From NCBI GenBank assembly GCA_963717505.1, contig OY970342.1:736001-800000 (forward strand): DNA of 64,000 nt, read 5' to 3'. Position 1 is the stretch's first letter; every line of letters starts with the position of its first letter. The position numbers and the translations under genes are program-made. This document shows positions 1,214 through 16,429 of this stretch, piece by piece. The notes beneath the pieces are model-generated. The model was not told where the DNA came from, ran no database searches, and worked only from the letters and a program-made list of their open reading frames with translations. The stretch is from Candidatus Eiseniibacteriota bacterium (GTDB lineage: Bacteria > Eisenbacteria > RBG-16-71-46).

Positions 1214-4192
1214 CTAGTCCGTGAGCGTGAGATCGATCCGGACTTTTCCGTTCTCGACCTTGCCCGGCTCGGGGTCCATCAGATAGATGCGGGCGTCGTC
1301 GACGCCCTGGGTCACCAACTGATCCTTGATCGTGAGGCCGCGCGCGTTGGCCAGCGACAGGAGATCGGCTTCGTCCACCGGCTGGAGCGCGGTCAGCGTG
1401 TCCTGGATCGCCGTATAGAGCCGCGGACTGTCGATCACCAGCTTCTTCGAGCCTTCCTTGAACTGAGGATGCTTGGGGTCGAGCTCGCCGGCCGGCATCT
1501 CGAACTTCTTCTTGAACTCGGCGAGCCCCTGCTTTTCGAAGCGCTCGGCGTAAAGGTCTTCGAGCAGGCGTGGAGAGTAGCCGACGCCCCCGCCGTACTT
1601 CTTGGGATCGGAGGCCAGCTTCTCCCCGGCCAGCGCCTCGAACTTCGCGTGCCGGATCGCGACTGCGTCCGCCTCGGCGTCCGAGCGTCCGCGCACTTCG
1701 AGGCTGAGCTGCGGGCGCTTGCCGAGGGCTTCCGCCAGCTTGGTCATCGACTCCTTCTGGTCTTCCGGCATCGCGCTGGCGCCGACCGGGAAGTCCACAT
1801 GACTCAGCTCGTCGGCGTCGCCCCCGCCGAACAGGCTGCCGAGCAGCGCGAACGGCGCGGTCGCGACCTTCTTGAGGAGACTCATGATGAAGTCCCAGAT
1901 CACCTTCCAGATGCCGAACTTGGGATCATCGAGGTCGCCCTCGACCGGCATGTCCAGGTTGATCTGACCGTTGCCATCTTTGAGGATTGCGAGCGCGAGT
2001 CCTACCGGCAGCTTGGTGGCCTCGGGACTCTCGACCTTCTCGCCCAGCTCGAATTGGTCGAGCAGGATCTTGTTCTCGCCGACCAGGTGCCGGCCCTCGA
2101 GCCGGTAGTTGAGATCGAGCGTCATCTTGCCCTTGTCGACTTCGCGGCCGAGGAACTGGCCGGTGTAGGGCGTCAGCACCGGCATGTTGAAACCGCTGAA
2201 GTCGACATCGAGATCGACGAACGTCCGCTCCGCGAGCGGATTGATCTCTCCGCGCACGCTGGCAGTACCGCTCGGCTGCATCTTGCCGTCGAGGACCACA
2301 CTGGCGCGCGACGCCGAGTCCGACGACAGCCCCTTCGCCGACCCCGCGATCTGCTCGATCCGGGCCGCGAAGGGCAGGATGAGCGAGAAATCGGCAAAGT
2401 CAGCCGAACCCTCGACGACGTCGATCGTGCCGATGCGGACCGGGATCGCCGAGGACTCGGTTGCGCTCTTGCGCATGGCGGCCAGCGCCTCGGACGGCTT
2501 CTGCGCGGCGACCACCGTGTCGGCCTGCAGCCCGAAGATCTCCTGGATGTTGGTGGTGCGATCCTTGTGGATCAGGATCTTGGCGTAGGGCTGGCTAAGT
2601 CGAACGCCGCCGACTCGAACGCGAGTCGGCGCGTAGTCGATCCCGCTCGCCGTCACCGACTTCCACGCCAGGAACCGGTCGTCGACGATGCGATCGCGCG
2701 CCAGGAACCCGCGGGATTCGACGACACCCTGGTAGCGCAGGTCCGGCTGATCCTTGCGCGCACCCTCCCGGAACTGGACTTTGCCTTTGGCGCCCAGCGT
2801 GCCGCTGACCAGTTGCAGCTTGGCAACCGGGTTCACGTAAGGCTGGAAGATCTTGAGCGGCAGATCCGACAGCATGACCTGGAGGTCGGCTGACGGCGGT
2901 TGCGCCACGGCTTTCCCCGTGGCTTCGAACTTCCCGGTTCCGGCGATGGTCACGTCGGTGGCCAGGTCGATGGAGGCACCCGGCTCGGAGCTGAGGTTGC
3001 GAAGCGTGGCGTTGGCCGGCGCCACCATGACCGCGAACGGCGGCGACACCGTACGATCCTCGAACGCGACTCCGAGATCGCGAACCGAGAATTCCTTCAG
3101 CTCGACCGTCCACGGCGCCACCGGCGCCACGCTGTCCGGGGGCGCGGCGGGCGCCGTTCCACTCGCAGGCGCCGCGGCCGACGCGGGCTTGGTCATCAGC
3201 GCCTGCCAATTGAGCGTCGTATCGGGCTCGAGCCAGGCGACCACGCGCGTTCCCGCCAGCAGCACGCGTTCGATGTTCACCGTCTGCTCCGGGTAGCGGA
3301 CCTGAATTCCGGTGACCCGCAGCGAATCGATGTGCAGAAGATCCGGCTCCTTCCCCGGGGCGCGCATCGTGAAACCGGTGAGGCTGAATCGGGCGTCGTT
3401 GATCCGCGACACGATGCTGTCCCCGCGCACGTCGGTTGCGTAGTCGATCCTGCAATCGGTGATGCCGTCCGTGACCTCGAAACCAAAGCGGCGCTTCGCG
3501 ATCTCCCAGAACTTCCGCAGCCCCGAATCGCTGACCTCGAGCACACCGGCCGAGTGCAAGGGATCGAAGGTCAGGTCCCCGTTCCACTGCCAGCGGCCGC
3601 CGCTGGGATCGGTGGCGACGATGCCGTAGCGACCTTCCTTGTCCGGGATCGTGGTGAAGTTCCTGAGCATGAGATCGATCGGCTCGAGCGTGCCGTCCTC
3701 GGGCTCGGCCGGCATCAGGTTGGTGACGCGCACGGACCCACGCGCGATCTCGAATTTGCCAAGGATCAGGCGCGGTGGCTTCGAGGGCGGCTGGCTGGCC
3801 GCGTAGTCGATCATGTCCGCAAAGTTGGGCCGGCCATCGGGCATCAGCCGAATGTGGGTCCTCGGACCCTCCAGCCGGAATTCCCGGAACGTCAGCGCCC
3901 AGCGCACCAGGCTCGAGAGTTGAAAGTCCGCGTGCATGCGATCGAACGCAACGAACGACGTGCCGTCGGCGTCCTCGAGGTCGAAACCCTCGAGCGTGAG
4001 CGACAGGAACAGCGGGTTGACGCGAACGCGGTCGAGCCGGACCTCGCGCTTGAGGGTCTCGCGAACCCCCTTGATGATCTGGCCGCGCACGATCCCGGGG
4101 AGCGCCAGGAATCCGAACAGCGAATAGACGACCAAGACCGCGAGCGGAATCCACACGCGCTTGCGGCGCAGCTGTTCGAGAACCGGGTTCAC
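1214..4192 (-). CDS. DUF748 / AsmA-like membrane-anchored protein (~992 aa)
   Basis: Likely start is GTG at 4192, 5 bp after the upstream stop. N-terminal TM helix (WIPLAVLVVYSLFGFLALP), repeated beta-rich segments, C-terminal LPVGLALAILKD..GQINLDMPVEGDLDDPKF plus OmpA-like tail (LANARG). Confidence 0.85.
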   Translation of the reverse strand: MNPVLEQLRRKRVWIPLAVLVVYSLFGFLALPGIVRGQIIKGVRETLKREVRLDRVRVNPLFLSLTLEGFDLEDADGTSFVAFDRMHADFQLSSLVRWALTFREFRLEGPRTHIRLMPDGRPNFADMIDYAASQPPSKPPRLILGKFEIARGSVRVTNLMPAEPEDGTLEPIDLMLRNFTTIPDKEGRYGIVATDPSGGRWQWNGDLTFDPLHSAGVLEVSDSGLRKFWEIAKRRFGFEVTDGITDCRIDYATDVRGDSIVSRINDARFSLTGFTMRAPGKEPDLLHIDSLRVTGIQVRYPEQTVNIERVLLAGTRVVAWLEPDTTLNWQALMTKPASAAAPASGTAPAAPPDSVAPVAPWTVELKEFSVRDLGVAFEDRTVSPPFAVMVAPANATLRNLSSEPGASIDLATDVTIAGTGKFEATGKAVAQPPSADLQVMLSDLPLKIFQPYVNPVAKLQLVSGTLGAKGKVQFREGARKDQPDLRYQGVVESRGFLARDRIVDDRFLAWKSVTASGIDYAPTRVRVGGVRLSQPYAKILIHKDRTTNIQEIFGLQADTVVAAQKPSEALAAMRKSATESSAIPVRIGTIDVVEGSADFADFSLILPFAARIEQIAGSAKGLSSDSASRASVVLDGKMQPSGTASVRGEINPLAERTFVDLDVDFSGFNMPVLTPYTGQFLGREVDKGKMTLDLNYRLEGRHLVGENKILLDQFELGEKVESPEATKLPVGLALAILKDGNGQINLDMPVEGDLDDPKFGIWKVIWDFIMSLLKKVATAPFALLGSLFGGGDADELSHVDFPVGASAMPEDQKESMTKLAEALGKRPQLSLEVRGRSDAEADAVAIRHAKFEALAGEKLASDPKKYGGGVGYSPRLLEDLYAERFEKQGLAEFKKKFEMPAGELDPKHPQFKEGSKKLVIDSPRLYTAIQDTLTALQPVDEADLLSLANARGLTIKDQLVTQGVDDARIYLMDPEPGKVENGKVRIDLTLTD

Positions 4193-4197
4193 GACTC

Positions 4198-7100
4198 TTA
4201 CTCCGCGACGATCTGAACCAATGCCGGCGGGGAGATCCCTTGTTGTTGGGCCGCCTTCGCCACCTTGACCGGGACGATTTTGGCGAATGCCTCGTGAAAG
4301 CGCCAGCGCTTCCACTCGCCCTCGAGCCGGACGGTCACATGCTCGCCCTCGATCCGAATCGGGAGCCCGCGGCGGAGGGCCTCGGCGGCGACGAACGGGC
4401 CCAGGTCCCGCGTCCACTCCTCGGGGGTGATCGCCGACAGGACATTGCCCGCGTATTGCGCGGGATCGAGCCGAACCAGGGGATCGAACACGAACACGCG
4501 GCCGGCCGCCGCCCCGGACATGAAGAACTTTCCGGAATAGGGCCGCGGCTTGAGCGAAAGCTCGCCGCGGCCGTCGGGCTTGCGCAGGCCCATGACCACG
4601 TGCAGCGAGTTGTCGCCGCCCGCCATCAGGTACTCGAACGCGTACTCGTTGGGCGTGCCGAAGTGGATCGACTTGAAGCCGGGCGCCGGCGTGCGCCCGT
4701 CCTCGAGCAGGACCTTGTTCTGCCCGGCCACTGCGAACCGCGAGCCCGAATCCCAGACGTTGATCGTTCCGCCGTGCGCGGCGTACATGCAGGTGTTGAG
4801 CGAGTCCTGGAGCACGAACAGGTAGCCGGAATCGGCCTTGAAGCCGAGATGGCTCTGACCCTGGCCGAACACATAGACGCGCGCGCCTTCGAGCAGGGCG
4901 CCGATGAAGTCGCCGAATTCGCGGCCGTACAGTTCGAGCGTGACCCCGCGCGCGGCCGTGCCGTCGGGCTGTGCCAGGTTGGTGCCGACGTAGCGCGGAC
5001 CGCCGATGAATCCGTACCCGACGATATTGCGCCACCCCAGTCGCACGGCCTCCGACGTGATGCGCGACGCCGAGTCGAGCCAGAACGACTCGCTGCGAAA
5101 GCCGGCATAGTCGACGACCAGGACATCGCGCAGCGGATCGCGGGGCGCGGCCAGGTCGTCTCGGGTTTCGAGCGTGAGCCGCGCCCACCGGCCGGTCGGC
5201 GACGGCGCCGCCAACGCTTCGTGAATCGGCGCGACCTGATCGAGCAGCCGCACGACGCCGCCTTCAGGCGAGCGGTCGCCGGCACGACCGCCGTCGGTCA
5301 GGTACTCCATGCTCGACAGCGACTTGCCACCGAGGTCGGTGAGCGCGAGCCGCGTGCGGAGTGTGGCGAGCACGCGCAGGACCAACGCCGTGCTCGTGTC
5401 GGAACCTTGCGCCCACTCCGGCAGCGCGTGCTCGACCAGATAGCGGTAGTCCTCGAAATTCAGCGTGCGCTGGCGATCGAGGGTACCGATCACCAGATCG
5501 CGCGCAGCACCGGTCAGCTCCTGATCGGGCCCCCAGGGCCGCGACGCCGGTGCCGCACCCGATTCGACCGCACGCACCTCGGCGGTCATACCCTCGAGCC
5601 AGCGCAGGACCAGGCTCTTCCACTCCGCCGACGCGCGGCCGACCGCCTGCTCGAGCACCACTTCGAAATCCACCTTGGCGCCGCCGCGCTCGACCTCGAT
5701 CGGCTCCCCGAACCGGTTGGTCAGGTCCATGCCCTGGGATCCCGGAGCCGTGAACGCCTCGAACACGCCGCCGAAGTCGCGTCGCTTGGGCGTGCCGCCG
5801 GGACGCATGTTGAAGCGCAGGTCGTGGCCACCGTCGTGGAGCACACCCTGGGCGTGCAGCGTGCGCAGCATGGCGTCGGCGATCTTGGCTTCGCTGCCGT
5901 TGGCCACGGCGTGGACTCCGCCCGGCGTGGTGTCGCGACTGACCACGATCTCGTGCGGGCGCAGGAACTTGATGTCCATGTTCTCGCGGAAGCCGACGAC
6001 CCGGAGCGGCCCGGACGCGGTCCAGCGCCGGCGCGACTCGACGATCGTGAACTTGTACGGGCCGGTCGGCGTCAGCTGGACGTAGTTGGTCATCAGCAGC
6101 GTGAACTTGCGCCGTCGTTCATCGTCCATGTTGGCCAGATCGAAGCCGGTGATCGGCGAAATGATCTGGCTCGCCTCTTCGGTCGACAGACCCAGCACGC
6201 GCCGCGTGAAGTCCACGAGATAGGCGGCGTACTCGGTGTCGGTCAGCGCCTTGCGCTCGTACACCGAGTCGCCGTGGTAGTCGGCGTGGCCCTCGCCCAT
6301 CGTCGGGTCGGCGTGGACGTAGCCGAACTCCATGAGGAACGGGGCGGTCGAGTCGACGGCCACCTGCTCGCCGTTGTGCATGAGCAGGACGTTGTACGCC
6401 TTGAACGGATGGGCGCCCGCGGGATTCCCGCGGCCTTCGGCGTCGATCGCCGGCGAGTTGGTCGGATAGCGGTGGTGCATACCCCAGACGTGCGCGTGGA
6501 GCGCCGGCGTGCGGGACGTTCGCCCTTTGAGCGTGACCGGCAGGCCGCCGGGCGCACCCGGGTATGCGATCCAGAAGCGGTCGAAGTCGAAGTACTCGGG
6601 AATCGTGTGCGTCCAGCCCGAGATCTTGATCGCGCCGAGATCCTCGCCCATCGAGACCACGAAGCCCCGGCGTTTGGCGGCGTACTTGCCCGCCGGTGGA
6701 TGCGATCCCGCCGGCGCGTGGGTCCGGTAGTAGCGCGAGTCCAGCAGGTGCGCGAGTGCGGTGAAGTACTCCTCGCGCACGTCAGCGACGAACCGATCCA
6801 GGCGCTCGAGATTGGCGTCCCCGGGGGGCGCCGGCCGGTCCGGATGGTCGAGCGCATGGGCGAGCGCGAAGTCGGAGAGATCCCCGTAGAGCGTCCGACG
6901 CTGGAGCCAGTGCTCGCTCGCGATCAATTGCCGGCCGTAACGCTGGAGCACCTCGAGCCGAAGCTCGACGAACAGTAGATGGAAGTCGCCCGGGTTCTCG
7001 CGCAGCTCGGCCAGACGCCAGCCGTCGTCCTTCTGGTACTGCGGCCGCACCGGCACCTTGAATTCCGGCAGACGCGCCAGGACCTGATCGAGCGGCAGCT

Positions 7101-10100
7101 CGGCGCCTGCGGCGTCGAAGAACCGGCAACCGGCGAAATGCCCGACCATCTGGCGGATGGTGTCCGCGCGATCGGGTCCGATGGTGTTGACGATCACGCA
7201 GGTCTTCTCGCGCACCGGTTCCGGCGCGAAGCCTGCGAAATCGATGCCGCCGCCGCGGTTGTTGCCGCCATTGAAGCTGAGCCGCGCCGACTCCCAGATC
7301 GCGTGCACGGTCACCGGCTCGGACACCGCCAGCGACCCGACGCGGCACGAATCCCGCTCGACCGTGACCGGGTCCACGGCCGGAGCCGGGCGCGACATCC
7401 GGGCCGGCACGCCGTCGGCGGCCGCGGCGTCGAGCGCACGCAGCGAACCTGCCGGTCCCGCGTGCTTCGGCATCACCAGCAGGTCGGTGCGGCCGCGCAG
7501 TTTGCGAATGTCGTCCAGCAGGCGGTCGGCGTGAACCACCCGGCCCTGCGCGTCGAGCGCGCCGCTCTCACGATTGAACGCGTCGAGCAGCACCGCCAGC
7601 TTGACCAGGTTCATCACCGTCCAATTGCGGAACCGCCGGCGCATCAGATCGCGGTCGTTCTGGATCGTCAGCTCGGGCTTGGTCGTGATGCCGCCGCGCG
7701 GGCAGTCGAGGTGACAATTGCCGCACTGATTGCAGCCGAAGGCCACGGCCTTGCCGATGCTGGCTTCGACCAGCGCGTCGGCGCCGGCGATCAGCACCTT
7801 GATCATGTCCAGCTCGCCGCGCAGCCCGCCCGACGCCAGGAGCCGCGTGCCACCGCCCGCGCCGAACGGAACGCCATTCAGGTCGCGGATCGACTTCAGC
7901 TCGCCGCTGCCGGCCAGGTCGACCTTCTCGCCGACCAGGGCATGATGCGTGTGCAGGATGGTGCGGAAGATGTCGGGCCACCCGACGTGTGAGCTGTCGG
8001 CGTGGTAGTTGCCGGAACCGCCGAGCCCGGAGTCGACCAGCAGGTAGTCGACCACGAAGTTGGACCACATGCCGGCGGCGACGTAGCGCGTGTAGTTGGA
8101 GCCGGTGATCTTGATGCCGCAATGGTTGTGGTAGAGCAGCCACAACCAGACTTCGGCCGGCATGTCCTCGATCGAATAGATGTCGTGCTTGGGATCGGGC
8201 GAGAGCGCGTCGGTGCCGATCGGAATGTTGCGCGCCTTGCTCACCGTGCTGGTGACTTTGGCTCCGGACAGACGCCCGCCCTTGCCCGGCTTGGCGCCCT
8301 GATTGATCTTGATCTCGACGTCGCGCACGCGGCGCAAGTCGGCGGCGTGCATGCCGAAGTGTCCGCTCGCCGCCTGCATGCTCTCCCAGGCCATCGCTTC
8401 GGGCGCGAGCCGAATCGGTCCGCCTTCGCCCGACGAGGTCATGGTCAGTCCGGTGTTGCCCTCGATGCGCGCGATCAGGAAATCCTCGGACGCCGCCCCC
8501 AGCGAAATGCTGGCGTGACACACCGGGCCGTGCCAGATGGGCTCTCGGAAGCCGAAGCCGGAGAGCACCAGGCCGCCGCGCGGCTCGCGCCGCAGCGTGA
8601 CCAACCCGTCCTTCGAGGCGCGCGCGACCGTGACCCCGTGCCCGCCGTGCCCGCGCGCCGAAAGTTCCGTCGAGCGCTCGGCGCCCTCGACATCGCGGGC
8701 GATCATCCATAGCGATTCGCCGCCGTTCAGCACGTTTTCGAGCGCATGGCCCGCCGCGATCTGGACTTCAAAACCTCCGGTGCGATCGGCGGTGAAACTC
8801 AGCAGAGCCGGACCGTCGGCGCGGCCCCGCAACTCGACCGTGGCGCCGGAGGCCACGGCTCCCGGCCGCTGGAATCCACGCGGCACCGCCATCGACACGT
8901 AATCGAGCAGCTTGGGATCGCGCGCCAGACGCGCCAGCGACCACTCGAGCGATTCGCGGGACAGCTTGATGCCGATCCCGTCGAGCGACATCGCGCCCAT
9001 GTCGCTGTCGATCAGGAAGTCGCCGGCCTCGGGCATCTGGCCGGCGGCCATGCGGTAGATGACCTCGAGGAAGTCCGCGCTCAGATTGCGATTCGTGTTC
9101 TCCAAATGGAAGTTGGCGTTGTCGTGGGCCAGGATCTTCGCGGCGGCGACCAGCGGCAGATCCGGGCGGCGCTCGCCGAGTAACGACGAGACTTTGAACC
9201 GCTCTCGCATGGCACTCGGCACCGGCTCGGCGGCGATGCGTGCCGCGTTCAACCCGGCGTTCAGGCCTCCGAACTCGGGCGTCGCCAGGGCGTCGACTTC
9301 GCGAATCCAGTCCTCGGTCATGGTGATCGCCATGGTGTTGCCGGAGGTCTTCTGGATGTCGTCGATCCCCATGCACGACAGGAAGTCGAGGATGCTGTGT
9401 TGCCAGCAAGTCAGCGTGTTAACCGCCAGCTCGCGCAGCTCGGGCAGACCGACCCCGCGCAAGGCGGTGCGCGCCACTTCGAGATTCGCGCCGTGGTGAA
9501 CCTCGATCAGCTCGGGCAGGAGCGCGATCTCGGCGACGTGGGTCATGGCCCCGCCGTTGGCGCCAAGCAGGACCGCCTCGTACACCGTGGCCGCCGAAGC
9601 CTGGGTGTCGGTATCGCCACCGGCCGATACCAGCTGGACGCGCGCCCTGAGAAACCGGGCCTTGAGGAACGCGTCGATGCGCGGGATCAGCCGATACGAC
9701 TTCTCGCGCCCCGAGTGAATGTGCAGCATGGCCACACCGTCCAGGCGCGCCGTGGTCTCGAGCGCCGGCCAGAATTCGGGATTCGCCGCGTCGTAACGCA
9801 TGAAGACCGACACCAGGAGTCCGGCATTCCGCTCGATCAGGGCGGCGACGTGGCGGGCGACGTCCTTGCTCCACGCGATCTCGACGATGCGCGACGCGGT
9901 CACCCATTCGCGCAGGGTTGCCGCCGCCTCCCCCGAGCCCGAGCTCAGTGCGTCCACGTGTCGCGGCTCGAGGCGAGGCATGACGTGCGTGGCATTCGGG
10001 CGCAGGGCTGCCGCGTGCTCCACGCAGCGGTCCGCCTCGATCACGACCAGCGAGCGTGTCTGCAGATCCGCCGCCGGGTTCGCGGCGGCGATCGCCTCGA

Positions 10101-10719
10101 GATAACCGCGCTCGAGCGAGATGTCGACCTTGAACGGCAGCGGTCCGACGATCATCGGCATGTCCAGACGAATCGCACGAACCGGAATGCTCGTCCGACC
10201 CTTGGCCGTGCGGAACAGGACCGCCGGATGCCGACGGGCGATGTCCCACGCGGTCGAGAATTCCTCGCGTAGACCGTCGTTCGCGGGGTGGGTGATCGCC
10301 GCGTGCGAGAAGTACGAGCGCCAGAAGCCATGGTGCCAGGCGGCGCCAATCGTCAGCGGCTCGTGACGGTGGCGTTCCTTGAGCACCTTGTCGAGATCGA
10401 ACGCGGTGATCTCGAGCTGCGGGATCTCGCGCGAGACCCGGGAGAAGTGCGAAAGGAAGAGCCGGCCGCGCCGGCCGCGCCCCAGACGCCAGAACGAGGC
10501 TTCGTCGACCCCGGCTCGCTCGAGCAGGAACGACAGCATGCGCCGCCCGCGATCGCGATCGCGCACGGCCGCGCTGTCAGGATCGACCACCAGCGTGAGC
10601 AGGTCCTCCCACATCGCGATCTGCCGGTGGAACGAACCCGGACGATCCGCCGGATCGGTCGACGGTGCCGGCCCGTGCGACGGTGCTCCGGGCGCGGGGC
10701 GTTCGAGGGTCGCGCTCAT
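4198..10719 (-). CDS. Domain-permuted glutamate synthase large-subunit-like protein (~2173 aa): degenerate barrel, FMN barrel with Fe-S, internal class II glutamine amidotransferase, GXGXG domain
   Basis: ATG at 10719 overlaps the upstream TGA (ATGA). FMN motifs SLGAAS, SGEGG, QAASGHFG, EIKINQGAKPGKGG, SPDPKHDIYSIED; Cys cluster CNQCGNCHLDCP; GATase motifs ERDSCRVG, HHRYPTNS, AHPF, HNGE, TDTE; C-terminal GltB_C-like repeats (GDFIGALLEG, YAAHGG, EYLMAGG). Confidence 0.88.
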   Translation of the reverse strand: MSATLERPAPGAPSHGPAPSTDPADRPGSFHRQIAMWEDLLTLVVDPDSAAVRDRDRGRRMLSFLLERAGVDEASFWRLGRGRRGRLFLSHFSRVSREIPQLEITAFDLDKVLKERHRHEPLTIGAAWHHGFWRSYFSHAAITHPANDGLREEFSTAWDIARRHPAVLFRTAKGRTSIPVRAIRLDMPMIVGPLPFKVDISLERGYLEAIAAANPAADLQTRSLVVIEADRCVEHAAALRPNATHVMPRLEPRHVDALSSGSGEAAATLREWVTASRIVEIAWSKDVARHVAALIERNAGLLVSVFMRYDAANPEFWPALETTARLDGVAMLHIHSGREKSYRLIPRIDAFLKARFLRARVQLVSAGGDTDTQASAATVYEAVLLGANGGAMTHVAEIALLPELIEVHHGANLEVARTALRGVGLPELRELAVNTLTCWQHSILDFLSCMGIDDIQKTSGNTMAITMTEDWIREVDALATPEFGGLNAGLNAARIAAEPVPSAMRERFKVSSLLGERRPDLPLVAAAKILAHDNANFHLENTNRNLSADFLEVIYRMAAGQMPEAGDFLIDSDMGAMSLDGIGIKLSRESLEWSLARLARDPKLLDYVSMAVPRGFQRPGAVASGATVELRGRADGPALLSFTADRTGGFEVQIAAGHALENVLNGGESLWMIARDVEGAERSTELSARGHGGHGVTVARASKDGLVTLRREPRGGLVLSGFGFREPIWHGPVCHASISLGAASEDFLIARIEGNTGLTMTSSGEGGPIRLAPEAMAWESMQAASGHFGMHAADLRRVRDVEIKINQGAKPGKGGRLSGAKVTSTVSKARNIPIGTDALSPDPKHDIYSIEDMPAEVWLWLLYHNHCGIKITGSNYTRYVAAGMWSNFVVDYLLVDSGLGGSGNYHADSSHVGWPDIFRTILHTHHALVGEKVDLAGSGELKSIRDLNGVPFGAGGGTRLLASGGLRGELDMIKVLIAGADALVEASIGKAVAFGCNQCGNCHLDCPRGGITTKPELTIQNDRDLMRRRFRNWTVMNLVKLAVLLDAFNRESGALDAQGRVVHADRLLDDIRKLRGRTDLLVMPKHAGPAGSLRALDAAAADGVPARMSRPAPAVDPVTVERDSCRVGSLAVSEPVTVHAIWESARLSFNGGNNRGGGIDFAGFAPEPVREKTCVIVNTIGPDRADTIRQMVGHFAGCRFFDAAGAELPLDQVLARLPEFKVPVRPQYQKDDGWRLAELRENPGDFHLLFVELRLEVLQRYGRQLIASEHWLQRRTLYGDLSDFALAHALDHPDRPAPPGDANLERLDRFVADVREEYFTALAHLLDSRYYRTHAPAGSHPPAGKYAAKRRGFVVSMGEDLGAIKISGWTHTIPEYFDFDRFWIAYPGAPGGLPVTLKGRTSRTPALHAHVWGMHHRYPTNSPAIDAEGRGNPAGAHPFKAYNVLLMHNGEQVAVDSTAPFLMEFGYVHADPTMGEGHADYHGDSVYERKALTDTEYAAYLVDFTRRVLGLSTEEASQIISPITGFDLANMDDERRRKFTLLMTNYVQLTPTGPYKFTIVESRRRWTASGPLRVVGFRENMDIKFLRPHEIVVSRDTTPGGVHAVANGSEAKIADAMLRTLHAQGVLHDGGHDLRFNMRPGGTPKRRDFGGVFEAFTAPGSQGMDLTNRFGEPIEVERGGAKVDFEVVLEQAVGRASAEWKSLVLRWLEGMTAEVRAVESGAAPASRPWGPDQELTGAARDLVIGTLDRQRTLNFEDYRYLVEHALPEWAQGSDTSTALVLRVLATLRTRLALTDLGGKSLSSMEYLTDGGRAGDRSPEGGVVRLLDQVAPIHEALAAPSPTGRWARLTLETRDDLAAPRDPLRDVLVVDYAGFRSESFWLDSASRITSEAVRLGWRNIVGYGFIGGPRYVGTNLAQPDGTAARGVTLELYGREFGDFIGALLEGARVYVFGQGQSHLGFKADSGYLFVLQDSLNTCMYAAHGGTINVWDSGSRFAVAGQNKVLLEDGRTPAPGFKSIHFGTPNEYAFEYLMAGGDNSLHVVMGLRKPDGRGELSLKPRPYSGKFFMSGAAAGRVFVFDPLVRLDPAQYAGNVLSAITPEEWTRDLGPFVAAEALRRGLPIRIEGEHVTVRLEGEWKRWRFHEAFAKIVPVKVAKAAQQQGISPPALVQIVAE

Positions 10720-13406
10720 CGCCGCTCCGCCGTCTCGAACGAATCGAGCGCCACGAACCAGGCCGGTGTCGGCGCTTCCATGACGCGCAGCGTCCGCCCG
10801 CCGTTCTGGTGGTTGTTCGGGCAAACCTCGACGCACGACCCGCAGCCAATGCACCGTTCCTGAGCGGTCTGGATCCACCGAGGATCCGCGCCCTCGAACT
10901 CGCGATTGGCGCTGGTGGGACAGACGGCGACACAAGCGCCGCAGTGGATGCAGGTGTCGGCCGGGCCGGCGTCGTTCTCGGAGCGCAAGACCAGGAAGCG
11001 CGGCACCCCCGGGAGTGCTGCCGGACTCCGTTTGATGTAGCCGCCCGGGCGCACGCCCAGGAAGTCGCGCGTGTATCCGGCCGAGCCCCGCACTGCCGCG
11101 ACCACGGCCGCGTGCCGGTTGCGGTCGTACGGACGCACGCGATTCGAAGCTGCTTGCATCTGGTCGTACATCGGCAGATGCGGAATGCCCGCCTGGCAGA
11201 CTTGCTCGCAATTGCCGCAGCGCATGCACAGGTCGAGCAGCGTGCTGCCGGTCGCCGGCACCGCGACGCCGCCGCGCATGGCTTCGCCGATGTGCGTGAG
11301 CATCTGGGGCAGGCGGATCTTCGATTCGTGGAAGATCGGGCAGACTGTGTTGCACTCGCCGCAGTTGACGCAGTGCAGCGCTCGATCCTCGGGCGTCTGG
11401 GCCGGTGATCCGGCCGGTGCGCCCGGGGCGATCGACAACAGCAGTGACTTCCCGCCACCTCCGGCCATCGGCGCCGGCGCGCGGAAGTCGGCGCCAACTA
11501 CCGCGGGTCCGCCACGCCCGCGGGCCGGGCCCGGGAGCACGCTCATTAGTCCGCGCACCGATTTCACCAGCCCGGAGAGCGCGGACTGAGCGTAGATCGC
11601 GCGCAGCAAGGAAACGCCGGGCGAGAAGGTCGATGCGACGACGGCGCCCAACGGCCCTTTGAGGCTCATGTCGACCAGCACGCCGCGATTCACGATGGCG
11701 TGGGGGTCGAGCGATCGCTTCGCCGCGCGGATCAATGCCGCGGGTCCGCGCCCGACCTTGGCGTCGAGCCACGCAGCCTGCCAGCGACCGAGCACGTACG
11801 GCTTGCCCTGGTGATGGTGCATCGCGAGGTCGACCAGCGTCGGCGCGATCATCAGGTCGGCGCCAAATGCACCCGAGCGATGGTCGGTGAGGTAGCCGGC
11901 GATGACCAGCGTCGATCCGTCGTGGACGTAGTAGACCTCGGCGTCCACCTCGCGTCCGACGTTGCGCGCGAGTTGGGCGGCGCGCGGAAGAAAACGCGGC
12001 ACCTCCGCCGCCGGCATCAGGATCTCCGCTGCGAGCAAACCGGGGCCGAGCCGCTTGGTCTGCATCGGCTTGAATCGCTCGGCGGCGAACCGAACGCTCT
12101 CTTCGCCGAGCAGCGCCGGCTGCCCTGGGCATGTCGGCAGCGCCGCGCCGAACGCCCGCGCCGCGGCTTGGTCCATGAAGTCGACGAACAAGTAAGCGCC
12201 GGCGTGATCGAGATCCGGGGCGGTCGCAGGCCCCAGCTCGCGCGGGCCGGTGATCGAGCGCCACGGCAACGACGCATCGCCCGAGAGAGCACCCAGGTGC
12301 TGGCGCCAGGTGCGCGCGTCCTCGTCGGCCCATACCGCACGCACGTGGTGCATGTGCGATCCGCTGAAGAACTTGATGTTGGCCGGTTTCTCCCCGGGCA
12401 ATTGGGTCACCCACTCCGCGGCGGCGAGGGCGTCTTGCTCACGCGCGAACGACAGGAGGAATGGATAGAGCGCCGGCCGCGGCTCGATGCGTACGGTGAG
12501 TCTCAGCAGCACGCCGTAGATGCCTTCACTGCCCGCGAGATCGTCGAGCGTCATGGGCTCGCAGCCTCGGTCGCGGAACCACGCGGCGACTTCGTGCCCG
12601 GCGAGAGTCCGGTGCGAGTGGCCTTCGACTACGTCGAATCGGCCGTCGTCGTGGAAGCGAACCTGGTCGCCCGAAGGCAGCAGCAGGTCAGCAGCGCGAA
12701 CGCTGTCCAGCGCGCGCCCACGCCCGTAGGCGTTGAGCCCGACACCGCCGGTCAGGAACCAGCCCGCGAGCGTGCCCCCCAGGTTCGAGGGATAGACGCC
12801 GAGCGCGAATCCCTGCTCGCCGAGTTGCTTGTGGATCGTGCGCATGCGCGCGCCGGCTCCGATGATGCAAACGCCAGCGGACGGATTGACCTCGATCCCG
12901 TCGAGACGCGACAGGTCGAGCGTCAGTCCTCCGTCGCTCGGCACCGAGCCGCCCATCGCGGTCGAAGCCGCTCCGCGCAGGGTGACCGGCACGCCCAGGT
13001 TGCGCGCCCAGCGCAGTGCCGCCTGGGTCTCGGGCGTGGTCACCGGCTGGAAGATCAGGTCCGGGACCGCGCGCGTCAGGCGTCGCGTGAACAGTCCCCC
13101 GAGGTAGACGTTCTGATCGCGGTCCGCCTCGCCACGCAGGAGTCCGTCAGTGACGATCCGCTCGCGCAGGGTTCTTGCTGATCCCGCGGCATCGGGCAGG
13201 TCGGCCAGGGCCTCGTGCAGCAGGCGCGCCAGCTCGCGCGTGCGCAGCGGCTCGGTGCGGTCGGCGTACGCCCGACCCTCGTCGAAGAAGAAGTTGAGGT
13301 CGGGGATCGAAGCGCGGACGACGGGGGCGCGCTGCTCGGGCGGAAGCGCGGCAAACGCCTCCGGCGACTGCCCTAAATGTCGATCGAGGAACGAGGCTTC
13401 GGACAT
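10716..13406 (-). CDS. FAD-binding (GlcD / D-lactate dehydrogenase-like) oxidoreductase fused to four 4Fe-4S motifs (~896 aa)
   Basis: FAD_binding_4 motifs (VTLRGAASTAMGGSVP, AGSEGIYG, DPHAIVNRG), then CVNCGECNTVCP, CMRCGNCEQVC, CIHCGACVAVCP, CIGCGSCVEVCP. Start taken at MSEASF (ATG 13406). Confidence 0.88.
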   Translation of the reverse strand: MSEASFLDRHLGQSPEAFAALPPEQRAPVVRASIPDLNFFFDEGRAYADRTEPLRTRELARLLHEALADLPDAAGSARTLRERIVTDGLLRGEADRDQNVYLGGLFTRRLTRAVPDLIFQPVTTPETQAALRWARNLGVPVTLRGAASTAMGGSVPSDGGLTLDLSRLDGIEVNPSAGVCIIGAGARMRTIHKQLGEQGFALGVYPSNLGGTLAGWFLTGGVGLNAYGRGRALDSVRAADLLLPSGDQVRFHDDGRFDVVEGHSHRTLAGHEVAAWFRDRGCEPMTLDDLAGSEGIYGVLLRLTVRIEPRPALYPFLLSFAREQDALAAAEWVTQLPGEKPANIKFFSGSHMHHVRAVWADEDARTWRQHLGALSGDASLPWRSITGPRELGPATAPDLDHAGAYLFVDFMDQAAARAFGAALPTCPGQPALLGEESVRFAAERFKPMQTKRLGPGLLAAEILMPAAEVPRFLPRAAQLARNVGREVDAEVYYVHDGSTLVIAGYLTDHRSGAFGADLMIAPTLVDLAMHHHQGKPYVLGRWQAAWLDAKVGRGPAALIRAAKRSLDPHAIVNRGVLVDMSLKGPLGAVVASTFSPGVSLLRAIYAQSALSGLVKSVRGLMSVLPGPARGRGGPAVVGADFRAPAPMAGGGGKSLLLSIAPGAPAGSPAQTPEDRALHCVNCGECNTVCPIFHESKIRLPQMLTHIGEAMRGGVAVPATGSTLLDLCMRCGNCEQVCQAGIPHLPMYDQMQAASNRVRPYDRNRHAAVVAAVRGSAGYTRDFLGVRPGGYIKRSPAALPGVPRFLVLRSENDAGPADTCIHCGACVAVCPTSANREFEGADPRWIQTAQERCIGCGSCVEVCPNNHQNGGRTLRVMEAPTPAWFVALDSFETAERR

Positions 13407-13548
13407 CCCGCGCGTGGGGAATGCGTGCAGCGCTCGGCGGCGTCGGGCCCCGCTCGCGCTGCCCGCGGACCATGGCACTGCCCGCGTAAAGCGGGACTAT
13501 AGCAGAGGGTTCGGCAGCCGGTCACGGCGGCCAAGCGAGGACAGCGGC

Positions 13549-15483: not shown

Positions 15484-16341
15484 CTAGCGCCCGAGCAGCA
15501 TCCCGGTCACCCGCACGAACGAGAGAACGAATCCCACCACGGTCGTTGCGAGCAACACCAGCGCCAGAACCTGAACCCATAGGCTCTCTCGCCGTTCATG
15601 GCTCAGCGGCATGAACTGGGCGACCACCCATCCTGATGCGAATCCCCCGCCATGAGCCCAGTTGTCGACGCCTCTCATGAAGAAGCCGAACGCGAACAGG
15701 ATCAGCGCCCAGGTCCAGAGTTGGGTGGTCAGCATCTGCGAACCGGTCCGCCGGCCGTAGACGATGAGCGCCGCGAGCAGGCCGAAGATGCTGCCCGAAG
15801 CCCCGACCGAGCTCGATGCCAATACTCCCGGGCCCGTCATGAGATCCCCCGCGATGTTCGACACCAGGAAGCCGAATGCGCCGGCGAGCGAAAAGATGAC
15901 GAAGCCGCGCGCCGGGCCGAACGCTTCGTCGACTTGCGGCCCGAGATTCCGGATCCACATGACGTTGAAGAAGATGTGCAGAATGCCGCCGTGCAGGTAG
16001 ATGGCGGTGAGCAGCGTCCACCACCAGCCGAGCTCCCAGGCGATTCCCCCGGTCATCCCGAGCTGGTAGAGCGCGCGCGAGCCCGGCGAAAGGATCGAGA
16101 ACATCCCCGACGTCTGGAGAATCGCTTCGGGCTGGAGGATCAGGGCCGCGACGTAGAGGACGATGCACGTCATCACGATCAGCGGAACCATGTCGAGCCG
16201 GTTTCCGAACAGCTTCTGGATCGCGGGCGCGTAGCCGTAGAGCCCGGGGCGCCACGCGCCGCAAAACGGGCACTGCTCCTCGCTGACGCTGATCAGCTTC
16301 CCGCAGTTGGGGCAGATCATCGAGCCTTGGGTCTGGCGCAT
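15484..16341 (-). CDS. Rhomboid intramembrane serine protease with N-terminal zinc ribbon
   Basis: CPNC...CPFC, HGGILHIFFN, VGASG (catalytic Ser), NWAHGGG (catalytic His). Confidence 0.92.
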   Translation of the reverse strand: MRQTQGSMICPNCGKLISVSEEQCPFCGAWRPGLYGYAPAIQKLFGNRLDMVPLIVMTCIVLYVAALILQPEAILQTSGMFSILSPGSRALYQLGMTGGIAWELGWWWTLLTAIYLHGGILHIFFNVMWIRNLGPQVDEAFGPARGFVIFSLAGAFGFLVSNIAGDLMTGPGVLASSSVGASGSIFGLLAALIVYGRRTGSQMLTTQLWTWALILFAFGFFMRGVDNWAHGGGFASGWVVAQFMPLSHERRESLWVQVLALVLLATTVVGFVLSFVRVTGMLLGR

Positions 16342-16429
16342 CGGGGAAAGATACGCCAGGAGGCAGGTGGAGACGATCGGAGCCCCAGGTCTACGTCTAG
16401 CCGACATCCCCGTTAGCCGCGCCTAACGC

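Follow-up and report, generated by a model that had tools for sequence, protein, structure and literature searches.

The window, i.e., the entire stretch of 64,000 nucleotides analyzed here, carries on its minus strand a module of two adjoining genes, referred to as A and B, for which the following features were annotated:

10716..13406, minus strand: gene A, 896 aa, first gene of the module, flavoprotein with FAD and four predicted [4Fe-4S] clusters (open reading frame, translation, Pfam)
12654..13064, minus strand: FAD_binding_4 domain (PCMH/VAO-type), gene A residues 115-251 (Pfam E 1.5e-24)
11682..12452, minus strand: cap (substrate) domain, gene A residues ~319-575 (weak FAD-oxidase_C match; fold like D-lactate dehydrogenase)
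11184..11381, minus strand: first 2x[4Fe-4S] domain, Fer4_8/Fer4_17 type, gene A residues 676-741 (Cys motifs at 679 and 727)
10812..10958, minus strand: second 2x[4Fe-4S] ferredoxin domain, gene A residues 817-865 (Cys motifs at 819 and 852)
10716..10719, minus strand: ATGA stop/start overlap of genes A and B (sequence)
4198..10719, minus strand: gene B, 2173 aa, domain-permuted glutamate-synthase-like protein
9355..10344, minus strand: divergent second Glu_synthase-like TIM barrel, gene B residues ~126-455 (profile search)
7666..8529, minus strand: FMN (synthase) TIM barrel, gene B residues ~731-1018 (Glu_synthase, PF01645, Pfam E 3.4e-45)
7699..7734, minus strand: 4Fe-4S motif C996-x2-C999-x2-C1002-x3-C1006-P of gene B (motif scan; invariant in the alignment)
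5650..7347, minus strand: class II (Ntn) glutamine amidotransferase fold starting from the internal Cys1125 of gene B (AlphaFold2 model and VIA-align)
4243..5187, minus strand: C-terminal beta-helix (GXGXG-like), gene B residues ~1845-2159 (weak Pfam GXGXG match, E 0.02)

Translation of gene A from the ATG at 13406 yields the 896-aa product. An in-frame GTG at 13478 represents a possible alternative start, but since M1 is an invariant column in an alignment of 16 sequences, the start at 13406 is favored. The original prediction, made from the nucleotide sequence, had described gene A as a GlcD-type FAD domain followed by four CxxCxxCxxxC motifs, and both elements were recovered: in a comparison with solved structures, the FAD_binding_4 domain was most similar in sequence to LctD (7qh2_C, E 5.4e-21), and a motif scan located exactly four such motifs, at residues 679, 727, 819, and 852. 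Of the remaining domains, Fer4_8 was assigned by Pfam with an E-value of 1.4e-16, and FAD-oxidase_C scored 20.5 bits on residues 319-575, which is below its cut-off of 21.2. The AlphaFold2 monomer model of A has a mean pLDDT of 83.2, with low confidence for the second ferredoxin domain (pLDDT 30-64). The predicted lack of CCG domains and of a recognizable NAD(P)H-binding motif was likewise borne out, as neither CCG nor NAD(P)-binding families were among the 19 Pfam families matching at E<=0.01, Pfam and NCBIfam reported no Pyr_redox or other nucleotide-binding family, Fer4_20 was absent from the Pfam families of A, and the motif scan found no GxGxxG. The sequence GKPYVLG, said to stand where GlcD has GEHG, is located at residues 534-540; in an HMMER alignment, which is weak at that stretch, SGEHG of LctD lies opposite LGRWQ of A. 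Homology searches with gene A returned 273 matches, and the 120 matches listed are 55-66% identical, the window's own copy excepted. All 16 cluster cysteines as well as the motif PYVLGRW are invariant in 35/35 aligned sequences. Given these homologs and invariant residues, the features of gene A are not a product of chance. In databases, members of the family are named only "FAD-binding protein," "glycolate oxidase," "glutamate synthase-related protein," or "hypothetical protein," and a literature search found no published work on the A/B family.

With respect to its fold, gene A was found by Foldseek to resemble mouse LDHD (8jdb; TM-score of 0.82 on the target, 539 columns), and alignments to the 455-residue LDHD comprised 530-540 columns with TM-scores of 0.8-0.82. 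The Foldseek matches listed are LDHD, D2HGDH, AGPS, and LctD. The oxidation of a 2-hydroxy acid at this FAD in the manner of GlcD, as originally proposed, found no support, as the Mn-binding His/His/Glu residues and the substrate motifs are missing; according to a motif scan, HxGDGNxH and GEHG are absent from gene A and from its distant fused relatives. D2HGDH relies on the same metal triad as LDHD. D-2-hydroxyglutarate as donor, which would allow a redox-neutral conversion of 2-hydroxyglutarate and glutamine into two glutamates, was set aside, since this triad is missing in A. For mouse LDHD, the available part of the source lists His398, His405, Glu442, Arg347, and His443 as Mn2+/substrate residues (PMC10589216), and equivalents of these are lacking in A. 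A lacks the metal and substrate residues of its nearest structural relatives, and its donor may be NAD(P)H or else an organic compound reacting by some route other than the classical GlcD metal mechanism. MurB, a flavoprotein of the FAD superfamily to which A belongs, accepts NADPH although it has no Rossmann motif, and by analogy A may use NAD(P)H despite lacking such a motif.

Gene B is coupled to gene A by the ATGA overlap that had been predicted (10716-10719), with a GGAG located 8 nt upstream of the gene B ATG. Its homologs from 56 loci are 51-75% identical. According to Pfam, AlphaFold2, and profile and structure searches, the domain order of B is TIM barrel, FMN domain, amidotransferase, helical domain (seen in the AlphaFold2 model), and beta-helix, and the GltB model was the only one reported for B by NCBIfam. 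For the N-terminal 725 aa, Pfam yielded nothing even at E<=10, and hhalign comparisons with the FMN domain of B and with canonical GltB were not significant (E 0.16-0.29). A word-based homolog search with this region gave 48 matches, nearly all of them fragments of the same family, and an ESM Atlas feature search gave weak leads only (score 0.81). It was the full profile search alone that established the identity of this barrel: the profile of the 725 aa matched archaeal-type Fer4+Glu_synthase proteins of 450-480 aa, whose family was confirmed by Pfam, with P0258 matching positions 126-451 at E 1.3e-11.

The second, FMN-binding barrel of B was recognized readily, matching residues 859-1037 of GltS (2vdc/1ea0) with E 1.9e-23 in a profile search of the PDB and canonical GltB with a probability of 99.2% in hhalign, and its QGAKPGKGGRLSGAKV motif is invariant across the family. 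The hhalign alignment shows the synthase loop to read PGKGGRLSG in B vs. PGEGGELPG in canonical GltB, a difference of two positions. It also places C996, C1002, and C1006 of B opposite the three conserved cysteines (CxxxxxCxxxxxC) of canonical GltB, which we take to be the [3Fe-4S] ligands, with C999 being extra. Judged from this alignment, the fourth cysteine, C999, would complete a 4Fe-4S motif at the [3Fe-4S] site of GltS, so that the predicted cluster type is [4Fe-4S].

The amidotransferase part of B was revealed by a fold search after sequence methods had failed: Pfam gave no match within residues 1090-1700, and no part of this region was aligned by hhalign to any of three canonical GltB sequences. 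VIA-align matched the model to Fd-GltS (1ofe_A; Z 17.8, rmsd 3.8, 517 aligned residues), PurF (1ecb_A; Z 10.5), and GlmS (3ooj_D; Z 10.0), with the aligned range starting at model residue 13, i.e., Cys1125, vs. residue 1 of the structures. The motif DSCRVGS is invariant in 35/35 sequences. For the beta-helix, hhalign gave an E-value of 0.011, and the structural alignment to GltS continues to chain residue 1503. The central domain of GltB (PF04898) was found neither in gene B nor elsewhere in its genome.

The original prediction had suggested examining whether the pair is conserved across genomes, and this turned out to be the case. Of the 61 loci, 56 have B downstream of A in the same orientation, and the remaining five end inside A, so that adjacency was observed in 56/56 testable loci. 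These come from metagenome-assembled genomes labeled Eisenbacteria, Planctomycetota, Actinomycetota, and Latescibacterota, i.e., from at least four phyla, and in the 18 loci checked the flanking genes were not conserved. The obligate linkage is accompanied by fused and split forms. A protein of 3016 aa (P0255) contains FAD_binding_4, FAD-oxidase_C, Fer4, TIM barrel, Glu_synthase, GATase_6, and GXGXG in a single chain and was matched by BLASTP to A over residues 43-843 (E 3e-38) and to B over residues 730-2102 (E 6e-76); a protein of 2508 aa (P0284) has the same layout. Conversely, the system is distributed over four genes in G074 and G113 and over three in G137, with the order kept and the FAD/Fe-S gene first. 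In these split operons, the second ferredoxin domain resides in the next gene, fused to the TIM barrel, which suggests that the natural junction of A and B lies between the last ferredoxin domain of A and the N-terminal TIM barrel of B. A complex prediction with residues 700-1124 of B and 655-896 of A returned a score of 0.00 ("no answer") and counts as evidence for neither side. In 6/56 loci, a gene for a type III glutamine synthetase (GSIII) is inserted between A and B, which is complete with GSIII_N, Gln-synt_C, and Gln-synt_C-ter domains.

The genome containing the window consists of a single 4.16-Mb contig, and its only Fer4_20 (GltD-type) match, at 598454-598765, lies some 140 kb from the window, in agreement with the statement that the window lacks gltD. 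The corresponding protein of 452 aa (Fer4_20 and Pyr_redox_2) is encoded by the sole GltD-like gene of the genome, whose coupled neighbor is a class III aminotransferase gene. A genome-wide search for a canonical gltB, proposed earlier as a check, came back empty, as both matches to Glu_synthase (PF01645) fall within gene B, the only gene of this genome with a glutamate-synthase FMN domain. Scored by its central domain, canonical GltB is present in 0/1 (own genome) and 3/30 (pair genomes) cases and is thus missing from 27/30 pair genomes. In the three exceptions, all Thermoleophilia, a canonical GltB gene adjoins glnA; because it is present in addition, the pair cannot be viewed as a mere substitute for GltB there. 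GltD-like genes occur in 25/30 pair genomes, and 5/30, including all three Planctomycetota, contain no Fer4_20. Within a sample of 121 genomes of the phylum, PF04898 was detected in two genomes, both times marginally, and complementarity with canonical GltB is therefore uninformative as a test within the phylum.

The same 121 genomes revealed a link to glutamine synthetase, which to our knowledge is near-universal in free-living bacteria. The own genome has no match to PF00120 (Pfam), and tblastn with a GSIII protein gave nothing better than E 1.2. Glutamine synthetase is absent from 18/121 genomes, and 17 of these 18 contain the A/B system (15 as two-gene pair, two in the split version, G074 and G137), compared with 4/103 of those possessing the enzyme. 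The four carriers that keep it (G069, G070, G105, and G113) all encode type III, in two cases inside the operon. Counted from gene A, 15/18 carriers of the phylum lack glutamine synthetase. Four families (f1, f2, f12, and f17) show this pattern, and at least seven changes between presence and absence of glutamine synthetase are required on the tree of B; the nearest relatives of the window's system, L005 and L037, retain a GSIII gene in the operon. As at least four genes for glutamine-dependent class I amidotransferases are kept in the own genome, glutamine must be needed. Phylum relatives that do not carry the pair possess glutamine synthetase and no GOGAT, meaning that the pair would replace the glutamine supplier. 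Outside the Eisenbacteria clade, glutamine synthetase is present in 13/14 pair genomes.

Taken together, A and B very probably form one electron-wired enzyme. The originally predicted substitution of A for GltD as redox partner of a GltB-like protein is supported by the adjacency in 56/56 loci, the fusions, the split operons, the glutamine synthetase insertions, and the missing canonical GltB. Our main reading, to which we assign a probability of roughly one half, is that A serves a two-gene glutamate-synthase-type enzyme as its dedicated redox subunit, corresponding in its role to GltD in NADPH-GOGAT. The FAD of A would exchange two electrons with a donor or acceptor, and four [4Fe-4S] clusters in A, if occupied as the motifs predict, would pass them on singly to the [4Fe-4S] cluster of B and from there to the FMN, at which 2-iminoglutarate would be reduced to glutamate. 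The iminoglutarate would arise from 2-oxoglutarate and ammonia, the latter being freed from glutamine at the amidotransferase domain. Because the catalytic Cys1125 is internal, B would be required to cleave itself between Ser1124 and Cys1125, which would turn Cys1125 into an N-terminal nucleophile. Chances are about even that the physiological reaction is the conversion of glutamine and 2-oxoglutarate into two glutamates.

In favor of a GOGAT are the A-B linkage, the fusions, the GltS-like nature of B, the GSIII in the operon, the scarcity of canonical GltB, and the glutamine synthetase found in the 13 pair genomes outside Eisenbacteria, as needed for a GS-GOGAT cycle. On the other side, the own genome, like most gene A carriers of the phylum, has no glutamine synthetase, so that a glutamine-consuming GOGAT would lack an endogenous supplier here, and GOGAT is missing altogether from most members of the phylum. 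Moreover, Pfam sees no amidotransferase in B, whose catalytic cysteine is internal and depends on a cleavage that is predicted only, the metal/substrate residues are gone from A, the synthase loop is altered at two positions, and the three Thermoleophilia genomes hold the pair plus a canonical GltB.

That A and B are mere neighbors, with B drawing its electrons from free ferredoxin or from the GltD-like protein whose gene lies 140 kb away, is scarcely credible. It would fit the GltD-like genes of the own genome and of 25/30 pair genomes; however, the own one is coupled to the aminotransferase gene and not to B, the five pair genomes without Fer4_20 include all three Planctomycetota, and A-like and B-like parts, adjacent in every testable locus, are even fused in P0255 and P0284. 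It is considered unlikely that the enzyme is an ordinary pyridine-nucleotide GOGAT whose small subunit is non-homologous. In this case, NAD(P)H would reduce the PCMH-type FAD of A directly, comparable to MurB or the FAD domain of xanthine dehydrogenase, and the D-lactate-dehydrogenase-like cap would have been rebuilt as a nucleotide site. PCMH flavoproteins using NAD(P)H without a Rossmann motif do exist, the strong conservation of FAD domain and cap despite the loss of the 2-hydroxy-acid dehydrogenase residues is in line with such a rebuilding, and the invariant basic cap residues K451, R452, and R541 could bind phosphates. Yet neither MurB nor xanthine dehydrogenase is among the Foldseek matches listed, Pfam and NCBIfam found no nucleotide-binding family in A, and no nicotinamide site is recognizable in its sequence. 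We regard it as decidedly improbable that the enzyme acts on other substrates, i.e., another gamma-glutamyl amide, 2-oxo acid, or amine, in a way similar to MgsABC/GmaS. The operon ligase is a full type III glutamine synthetase, NCBIfam gives the GltB model alone for B, and the 54 flanking genes scanned include no methylamine or N-methylglutamate dehydrogenase genes; in favor are the two altered positions of the synthase loop, the extra TIM barrel and helical domain of B, and the precedent of mgsABC-gmaS, for which the available part of the source describes GOGAT-like proteins and a GS-like ligase in one operon (PMC6237917).

The glutamine synthetase pattern could also be explained if the enzyme ran oxidatively, converting two glutamates into glutamine and 2-oxoglutarate as an ATP-independent stand-in for glutamine synthetase. 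One glutamate would be oxidized at the FMN, and the ammonia set free would be taken up by another glutamate at the Cys1125 site, with electrons leaving via the FMN of B, five clusters, and the FAD of A to a high-potential acceptor such as quinone or O2. This is what the 17/18 vs. 4/103 distribution over four families, the repeated changes on the B tree with GSIII retained in L005 and L037, the continued need for glutamine in the own genome, and the replacement of a glutamine supplier rather than of a GOGAT would suggest, and by a rough hand estimate the reaction is favorable with an acceptor above about -110 mV. Running in reverse had been offered as an alternative in the original prediction, there as an amino-acid oxidation module, and it gains indirect support from the repeated loss of glutamine synthetase in carriers. 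Nevertheless, we judge glutamine formation by this route quite unlikely. Making an amide with no ATP input is thermodynamically unfavorable and lacks chemical coupling to the redox step, and we know of no GltS reported to make glutamine. Furthermore, 13/14 pair genomes outside Eisenbacteria keep glutamine synthetase as in ordinary GS-GOGAT, and a GSIII in the operon suits this cycle better than two glutamine-forming enzymes side by side. The related genomes are also non-independent observations, the losses could be accounted for by an unrecognized non-homologous glutamine-forming enzyme or by glutamine uptake, and metagenome-assembled genomes can be incomplete, even if the own genome consists of one contig.

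Known glutamate synthases receive their electrons from NADPH via GltD, from NADH in the fused eukaryotic form, or from ferredoxin. With A as redox subunit of a two-gene glutamate synthase, A/B would add a fourth input, namely a GlcD-like flavoprotein with four clusters, together with a permuted large subunit whose catalytic cysteine would have to be liberated by cleavage of the 2173-aa chain into two parts. A/B is the only glutamate-synthase-type enzyme in most carrier genomes, which belong to several uncultured soil and sediment phyla, and it marks almost exactly those genomes of the phylum that lack glutamine synthetase. Either these carriers depend on outside glutamine or A/B changes how glutamine is obtained; oxidative running, if true, would explain why glutamine synthetase was lost repeatedly in carriers and almost never in their relatives.

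Among known systems, A/B comes close to the NADPH-glutamate synthase GltB/GltD of Azospirillum brasilense (1ea0, 2vdc, and 6s6s) and to Fd-GltS of Synechocystis (1ofd and 1ofe). B shares with GltS the FMN barrel, a predicted cluster at the place of the [3Fe-4S], the Ntn fold of the amidotransferase, and the beta-helix at the C-terminus. Unlike in GltB, where the order is amidotransferase, central domain, FMN domain, and beta-helix, the amidotransferase of B follows the FMN domain, its catalytic cysteine is internal, an extra divergent TIM barrel is present, no central domain is detected by Pfam, and CxxCxxCxxxCP stands in place of the three-Cys [3Fe-4S] site. No homology exists between A and GltD: where GltD has Fer4_20 and adrenodoxin-reductase-like FAD/NADPH Rossmann domains, A has an FAD domain of the PCMH/GlcD type, and it carries motifs for four clusters vs. 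two. A second group of related systems consists of FAD-linked D-2-hydroxy-acid dehydrogenases and their Fe-S partners, namely mouse LDHD (8jdb), D2HGDH (6lpn), LctD of Ldh-EtfAB (7qh2), and glycolate oxidase GlcD/GlcF; the FAD and cap fold of A agrees with that of these dehydrogenases (TM-score of 0.8 on LDHD). Its first dicluster domain, being of the Fer4_8 type, presumably resembles that of GlcF-like subunits; unlike in GlcF, LutA, or HdrD-type subunits, no CCG domains follow, and unlike in quinone- or ETF-linked relatives, a second ferredoxin domain would wire A to a GltS-like partner. What A and GltD have in common, as far as the available part of the source describes the cofactors and electron path of canonical GltS, is one FAD and a [4Fe-4S] chain on a separate polypeptide whose gene adjoins that of the large subunit (PMC8097209). 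MgsABC-GmaS is similar in combining amidotransferase, GXGXG, and FMN domains with a GS-family ligase in an operon; according to the available part of its description, it has no FAD/Fe-S subunit, and its ligase of ~430 aa is not a GSIII (PMC6237917). Similar in organization to the split forms G074, G113, and G137, set beside them here by description, are split archaeal- or clostridial-type glutamate synthase clusters such as Clo1313_2030-2036 of Clostridium thermocellum, which in the available part of the source likewise has no GltD and in which an Fe-S protein gene is accompanied by genes for distinct amidotransferase and FMN subunits (PMC4676874). Going by the same description, the clostridial system employs a ferredoxin subunit, whereas A/B always starts with a GlcD-like FAD protein and possesses a second, divergent TIM barrel.

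Translation of the window gave the following features for the pair of genes, here called gene A and gene B:

10716–13406, minus strand: gene A, FAD and Fe-S protein, from ATG 13406 to the stop at 10716, 896 aa
gene A, residues 115–251: FAD_binding_4 (Pfam, E 1.5e-24)
gene A, residues 319–575: FAD-oxidase_C (Pfam, 20.5 bits, sub-threshold at a cut-off of 21.2)
gene A, residues 676–741 and 817–865: two dicluster ferredoxin domains (Pfam)
4198–10719, minus strand: gene B, GltB-like protein, ORF of 2173 aa

An alternative start of gene A, GTG 13478, lies upstream, but ATG 13406 is favoured since M1 is an invariant column in an alignment of 16 sequences. The stop of gene A and the start of gene B share ATGA, with a GGAG 8 nt 5′ of the latter start. 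A motif script located exactly four CxxCxxCxxxC motifs in gene A (residues 679, 727, 819, and 852) as well as GKPYVLG (residues 534–540), and found no GxGxxG. Neither a CCG domain nor an NAD(P)-binding family was among the 19 Pfam families reported at E ≤ 0.01. The original prediction of a GlcD-type FAD protein with these motifs and lacking these domains, encoded by a gene coupled to a GltB-like gene through ATGA, is thus borne out.

The gene A family is large and well conserved. A search yielded 273 matches, and the 120 listed share 55–66% identity, except for the window's own copy, with lengths of about 810–1000 aa in nearly all of them. Where names are given, these are only “FAD-binding protein,” “FAD/FMN-containing dehydrogenase/ferredoxin,” or “glycolate oxidase”/“glycolate dehydrogenase.” When members of 46–54% identity are included in an alignment of 35 sequences, all of the 16 cluster cysteines and PYVLGRW are still invariant. 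Names of gene A/B family members in databases are generic, and a full-text literature search found no paper on the family.

In Foldseek, the AlphaFold2 model of gene A (mean pLDDT 83.2; last ferredoxin domain poorly defined) matched mouse D-lactate dehydrogenase (LDHD) with a TM-score of 0.80–0.82 on the target over ~530–540 columns; further matches were D-2-hydroxyglutarate dehydrogenase, alkyl-DHAP synthase, and LctD, the last also being the best solved relative by sequence (E 5.4e-21). The mouse LDHD study (PMC10589216) describes Mn2+ as bound by His398, His405, and Glu442 and the substrate by Arg347 and His443, with every alanine mutant of these five residues inactive. A motif scan found neither HxGDGNxH nor GEHG in gene A or its distant relatives, and SGEHG of LctD aligns opposite the invariant LGRWQ of gene A in a weak stretch of the HMMER alignment. 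As these two motifs carry the Mn2+ and substrate residues, gene A has kept the D-2-hydroxy-acid dehydrogenase fold without the chemistry of that family, and the earlier proposal of a 2-hydroxy acid as donor at the FAD is not supported.

Scanning one genome per species yielded 61 loci with gene A. In 56 of these, gene A is followed by a co-oriented gene B homologue, and the other five stop within gene A, so that the pairing proposed for the window is conserved across genomes. According to their MAG labels, the carriers belong to Eisenbacteria (the majority), Planctomycetota, Thermoleophilia/Actinomycetes, Latescibacterota, and Krumholzibacteriia. Three loci labeled Udaeobacter, Saccharimonadaceae, and Limnocylindria (L008, L017, and L020) have B sequences that nest within the Eisenbacteria clade, and these labels probably reflect mistakes in binning or classification, not gene transfer. 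The genes flanking the pair vary between lineages (54 flanking ORFs at 18 loci).

In the window, the module is closely preceded by a rhomboid protease gene (15484–16407, minus strand), with a TMEM260-like gene separating the two. The Eisenbacteria loci L009, L017, L025, and L037 likewise have a rhomboid protease gene just upstream, which was not seen in other phyla; this synteny is lineage-level. Directly downstream of gene B lies a very large DUF748/AsmA-like gene (1214–5188, minus strand; Pfam DUF748, E 2e-239). The longest ORF of this gene runs into the end of gene B, so its true start must be below 4198. At locus L006, a 306-aa ORF with a ClpP-like SDH-type serine protease/NfeD domain (8028–8948, plus strand) stands between the A and B homologues, where other loci have type III glutamine synthetase (GSIII) or nothing.

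The modules of the pair also occur in other gene arrangements. Protein P0255, which came up in a profile search, is a natural fusion of 3016 aa comprising FAD_binding_4, FAD-oxidase_C, Fer4, a TIM barrel, Glu_synthase, GATase_6, and GXGXG, which matches residues 43–843 of gene A (E 3e-38) and 730–2102 of gene B (E 6e-76); P0284 (2508 aa, partial) is similar. Two Chloroflexota proteins of ~1200 aa (P0288 and P0290) combine an A-like region, in which four Cys motifs occur, with the divergent TIM barrel. Split operons of four genes (genomes G074 and G113) or three (G137) keep the same order, namely FAD+Fer4_8, Fer4+TIM, Fer4+Glu_synthase, and amidotransferase+GXGXG. Since fusions and split operons keep the module order, the A/B boundary is one of several places at which a single modular enzyme is split into genes. 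Directly upstream of the three-gene split system of G137, on the same strand, lies a glutamine-dependent NAD synthetase gene (CN_hydrolase + NAD_synthase; L073:17721–18962, minus strand); no glutamine synthetase was found in this genome.

Of gene B, only the FMN domain can be readily recognized from sequence (Pfam Glu_synthase, E 3.4e-45), and several sequence-only searches remained blank. A PDB profile search returned GltS large chains only (E 1.9e-23), and hhalign against three canonical Thermoleophilia GltB gave 99.2% probability, with C996, C1002, and C1006 opposite the three conserved cysteines (CxxxxxCxxxxxC) of canonical GltB, which we take to be [3Fe-4S] ligands. Since a fourth cysteine, C999, completes CxxCxxCxxxCP in gene B, a [4Fe-4S] cluster is likely. 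Five GltS large subunits were the only Foldseek matches (E ≤ 0.001) of a model of residues 1113–2173 (pLDDT 78.2). VIA-align superposed model residues 13–1045 on residues 1–1503 of Synechocystis Fd-GltS (Z 17.8, rmsd 3.8, 517 aligned) and also matched PurF (1ecb_A; Z 10.5) and GlmS (3ooj_D; Z 10.0). All three alignments begin at model residue 13 and chain residue 1. As this model residue is Cys1125, within a DSCRVGS motif invariant in 35/35 sequences, gene B is predicted to contain an Ntn amidotransferase domain with an internal nucleophile, followed by a helical domain and a beta-helix. Since an Ntn cysteine requires a free amino group, gene B is inferred to cleave itself at Ser1124/Cys1125. 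Split relatives have the amidotransferase/beta-helix protein as its own chain with ~8–35 residues ahead of the equivalent GGCGV motif, which would make leader removal a trait of the whole family. When 1.84 billion representatives were searched with a profile of the first 725 residues of gene B, the matches beyond family fragments were archaeal-type Fer4+Glu_synthase proteins of 450–480 aa (e.g., P0258, E 1.3e-11, profile positions 126–451), so that a second, divergent TIM barrel stands at the start of gene B.

The window's own genome (one contig, 4.16 Mb, marker completeness 86.7%) contains no Glu_synthase domain beyond gene B, hence no canonical gltB, and no GATase_2 match; glutamine synthetase was found neither with Pfam nor by tblastn with GSIII. 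At least four class I amidotransferase genes and an intact GDH of 426 aa (1725584–1726300) are present. A second ELFV-type dehydrogenase match outside the window (2707903–2708533) is broken over two open frames (192 + 279 aa), which suggests a frameshifted or degraded copy. The absence of gltD stated for the window stands; on the genome scale there is one GltD-like gene, but it is coupled to a class III aminotransferase ~140 kb from the window. This gene (597488–600221; L004:7489–10222; Fer4_20 + Pyr_redox_2, 452 aa), the genome's single Fer4_20 match, overlaps the aminotransferase gene, and no GltB or PreA-type partner was seen near it. Among 30 pair genomes, Fer4_20 occurs in 25, never at the pair's locus, the canonical GltB central domain in three (all Thermoleophilia, beside glnA), and glutamine synthetase in 19, including 13 of the 14 outside the Eisenbacteria clade.

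Glutamine synthetase was also surveyed across the window's phylum in 121 evenly sampled genomes, some of which are among the 30 pair genomes. Gene A matches at E ≤ 1e-20 were found in 20, comprising 18 full homologues and two partial matches (G103 and G113; 33–39% identity); canonical GltB is essentially absent (two marginal matches). Glutamine synthetase is present in 103 genomes, including one unpublished genome (G045) on which no claim rests. The 18 genomes lacking it contain the pair in 15 cases, the split system in two (G074 and G137), and neither in one (G119, 2.2 Mb). Only 4/103 glutamine-synthetase genomes carry the system (G069, G070, G105, and G113); the enzyme is type III in all four and lies within the operon in two. 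Four families (f1, f2, f12, and f17) show the association. In a FastTree of the C-terminal half of gene B (35 rows), phyla separate cleanly, GSIII-containing operons branch off early within the Eisenbacteria clade, GSIII is retained in L005 and L037, which are closest to the window, and glutamine synthetase state changes at least seven times.

The conventional reading, a glutamine-dependent glutamate synthase with electrons entering at the FAD of gene A, has in our estimate a probability of about 0.5. A full GSIII lies between A and B at six of the 56 loci (L005, L021, L022, L023, L037, and L056), most carriers lack canonical GltB, and genomes outside Eisenbacteria have no GS/GOGAT set other than glutamine synthetase plus the system. 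At odds with this reading, glutamine synthetase has been lost repeatedly, and in carriers specifically; the relatives of these carriers have glutamine synthetase and lack GOGAT. Such losses suggest that carriers either rely on external glutamine or run the reaction in reverse to form it, although the latter, which would be driven by a high-potential acceptor, seems unlikely. Other substrates for a GOGAT-like enzyme are possible as well, by analogy with MgsABC/GmaS (PMC6237917). With regard to the glutamate synthase reading, NAD(P)H is as likely a donor at the FAD as an organic compound. MurB uses NAD(P)H at its PCMH flavin.

Electrons would run along a wire with a flavin at either end, from FAD and four [4Fe-4S] clusters in A to one [4Fe-4S] cluster and FMN in B. 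This would be analogous to the chain of NADPH-GltS, given in section 6.1 of PMC8097209 as FAD, two [4Fe-4S], [3Fe-4S], and FMN. Gene A has neither Fer4_20 nor an NADPH domain and is not a GltD; it lacks the CCG domain of GlcF and is not a GlcF; and, with the metal site missing, it is not a functional GlcD/LDHD. GltS-like gene B departs from the GltS family in its domain order, central domain, and N-terminal Cys. In C. thermocellum, split GltS clusters that lack GltD and include ferredoxin subunits are known from annotations and expression data (PMC4676874).
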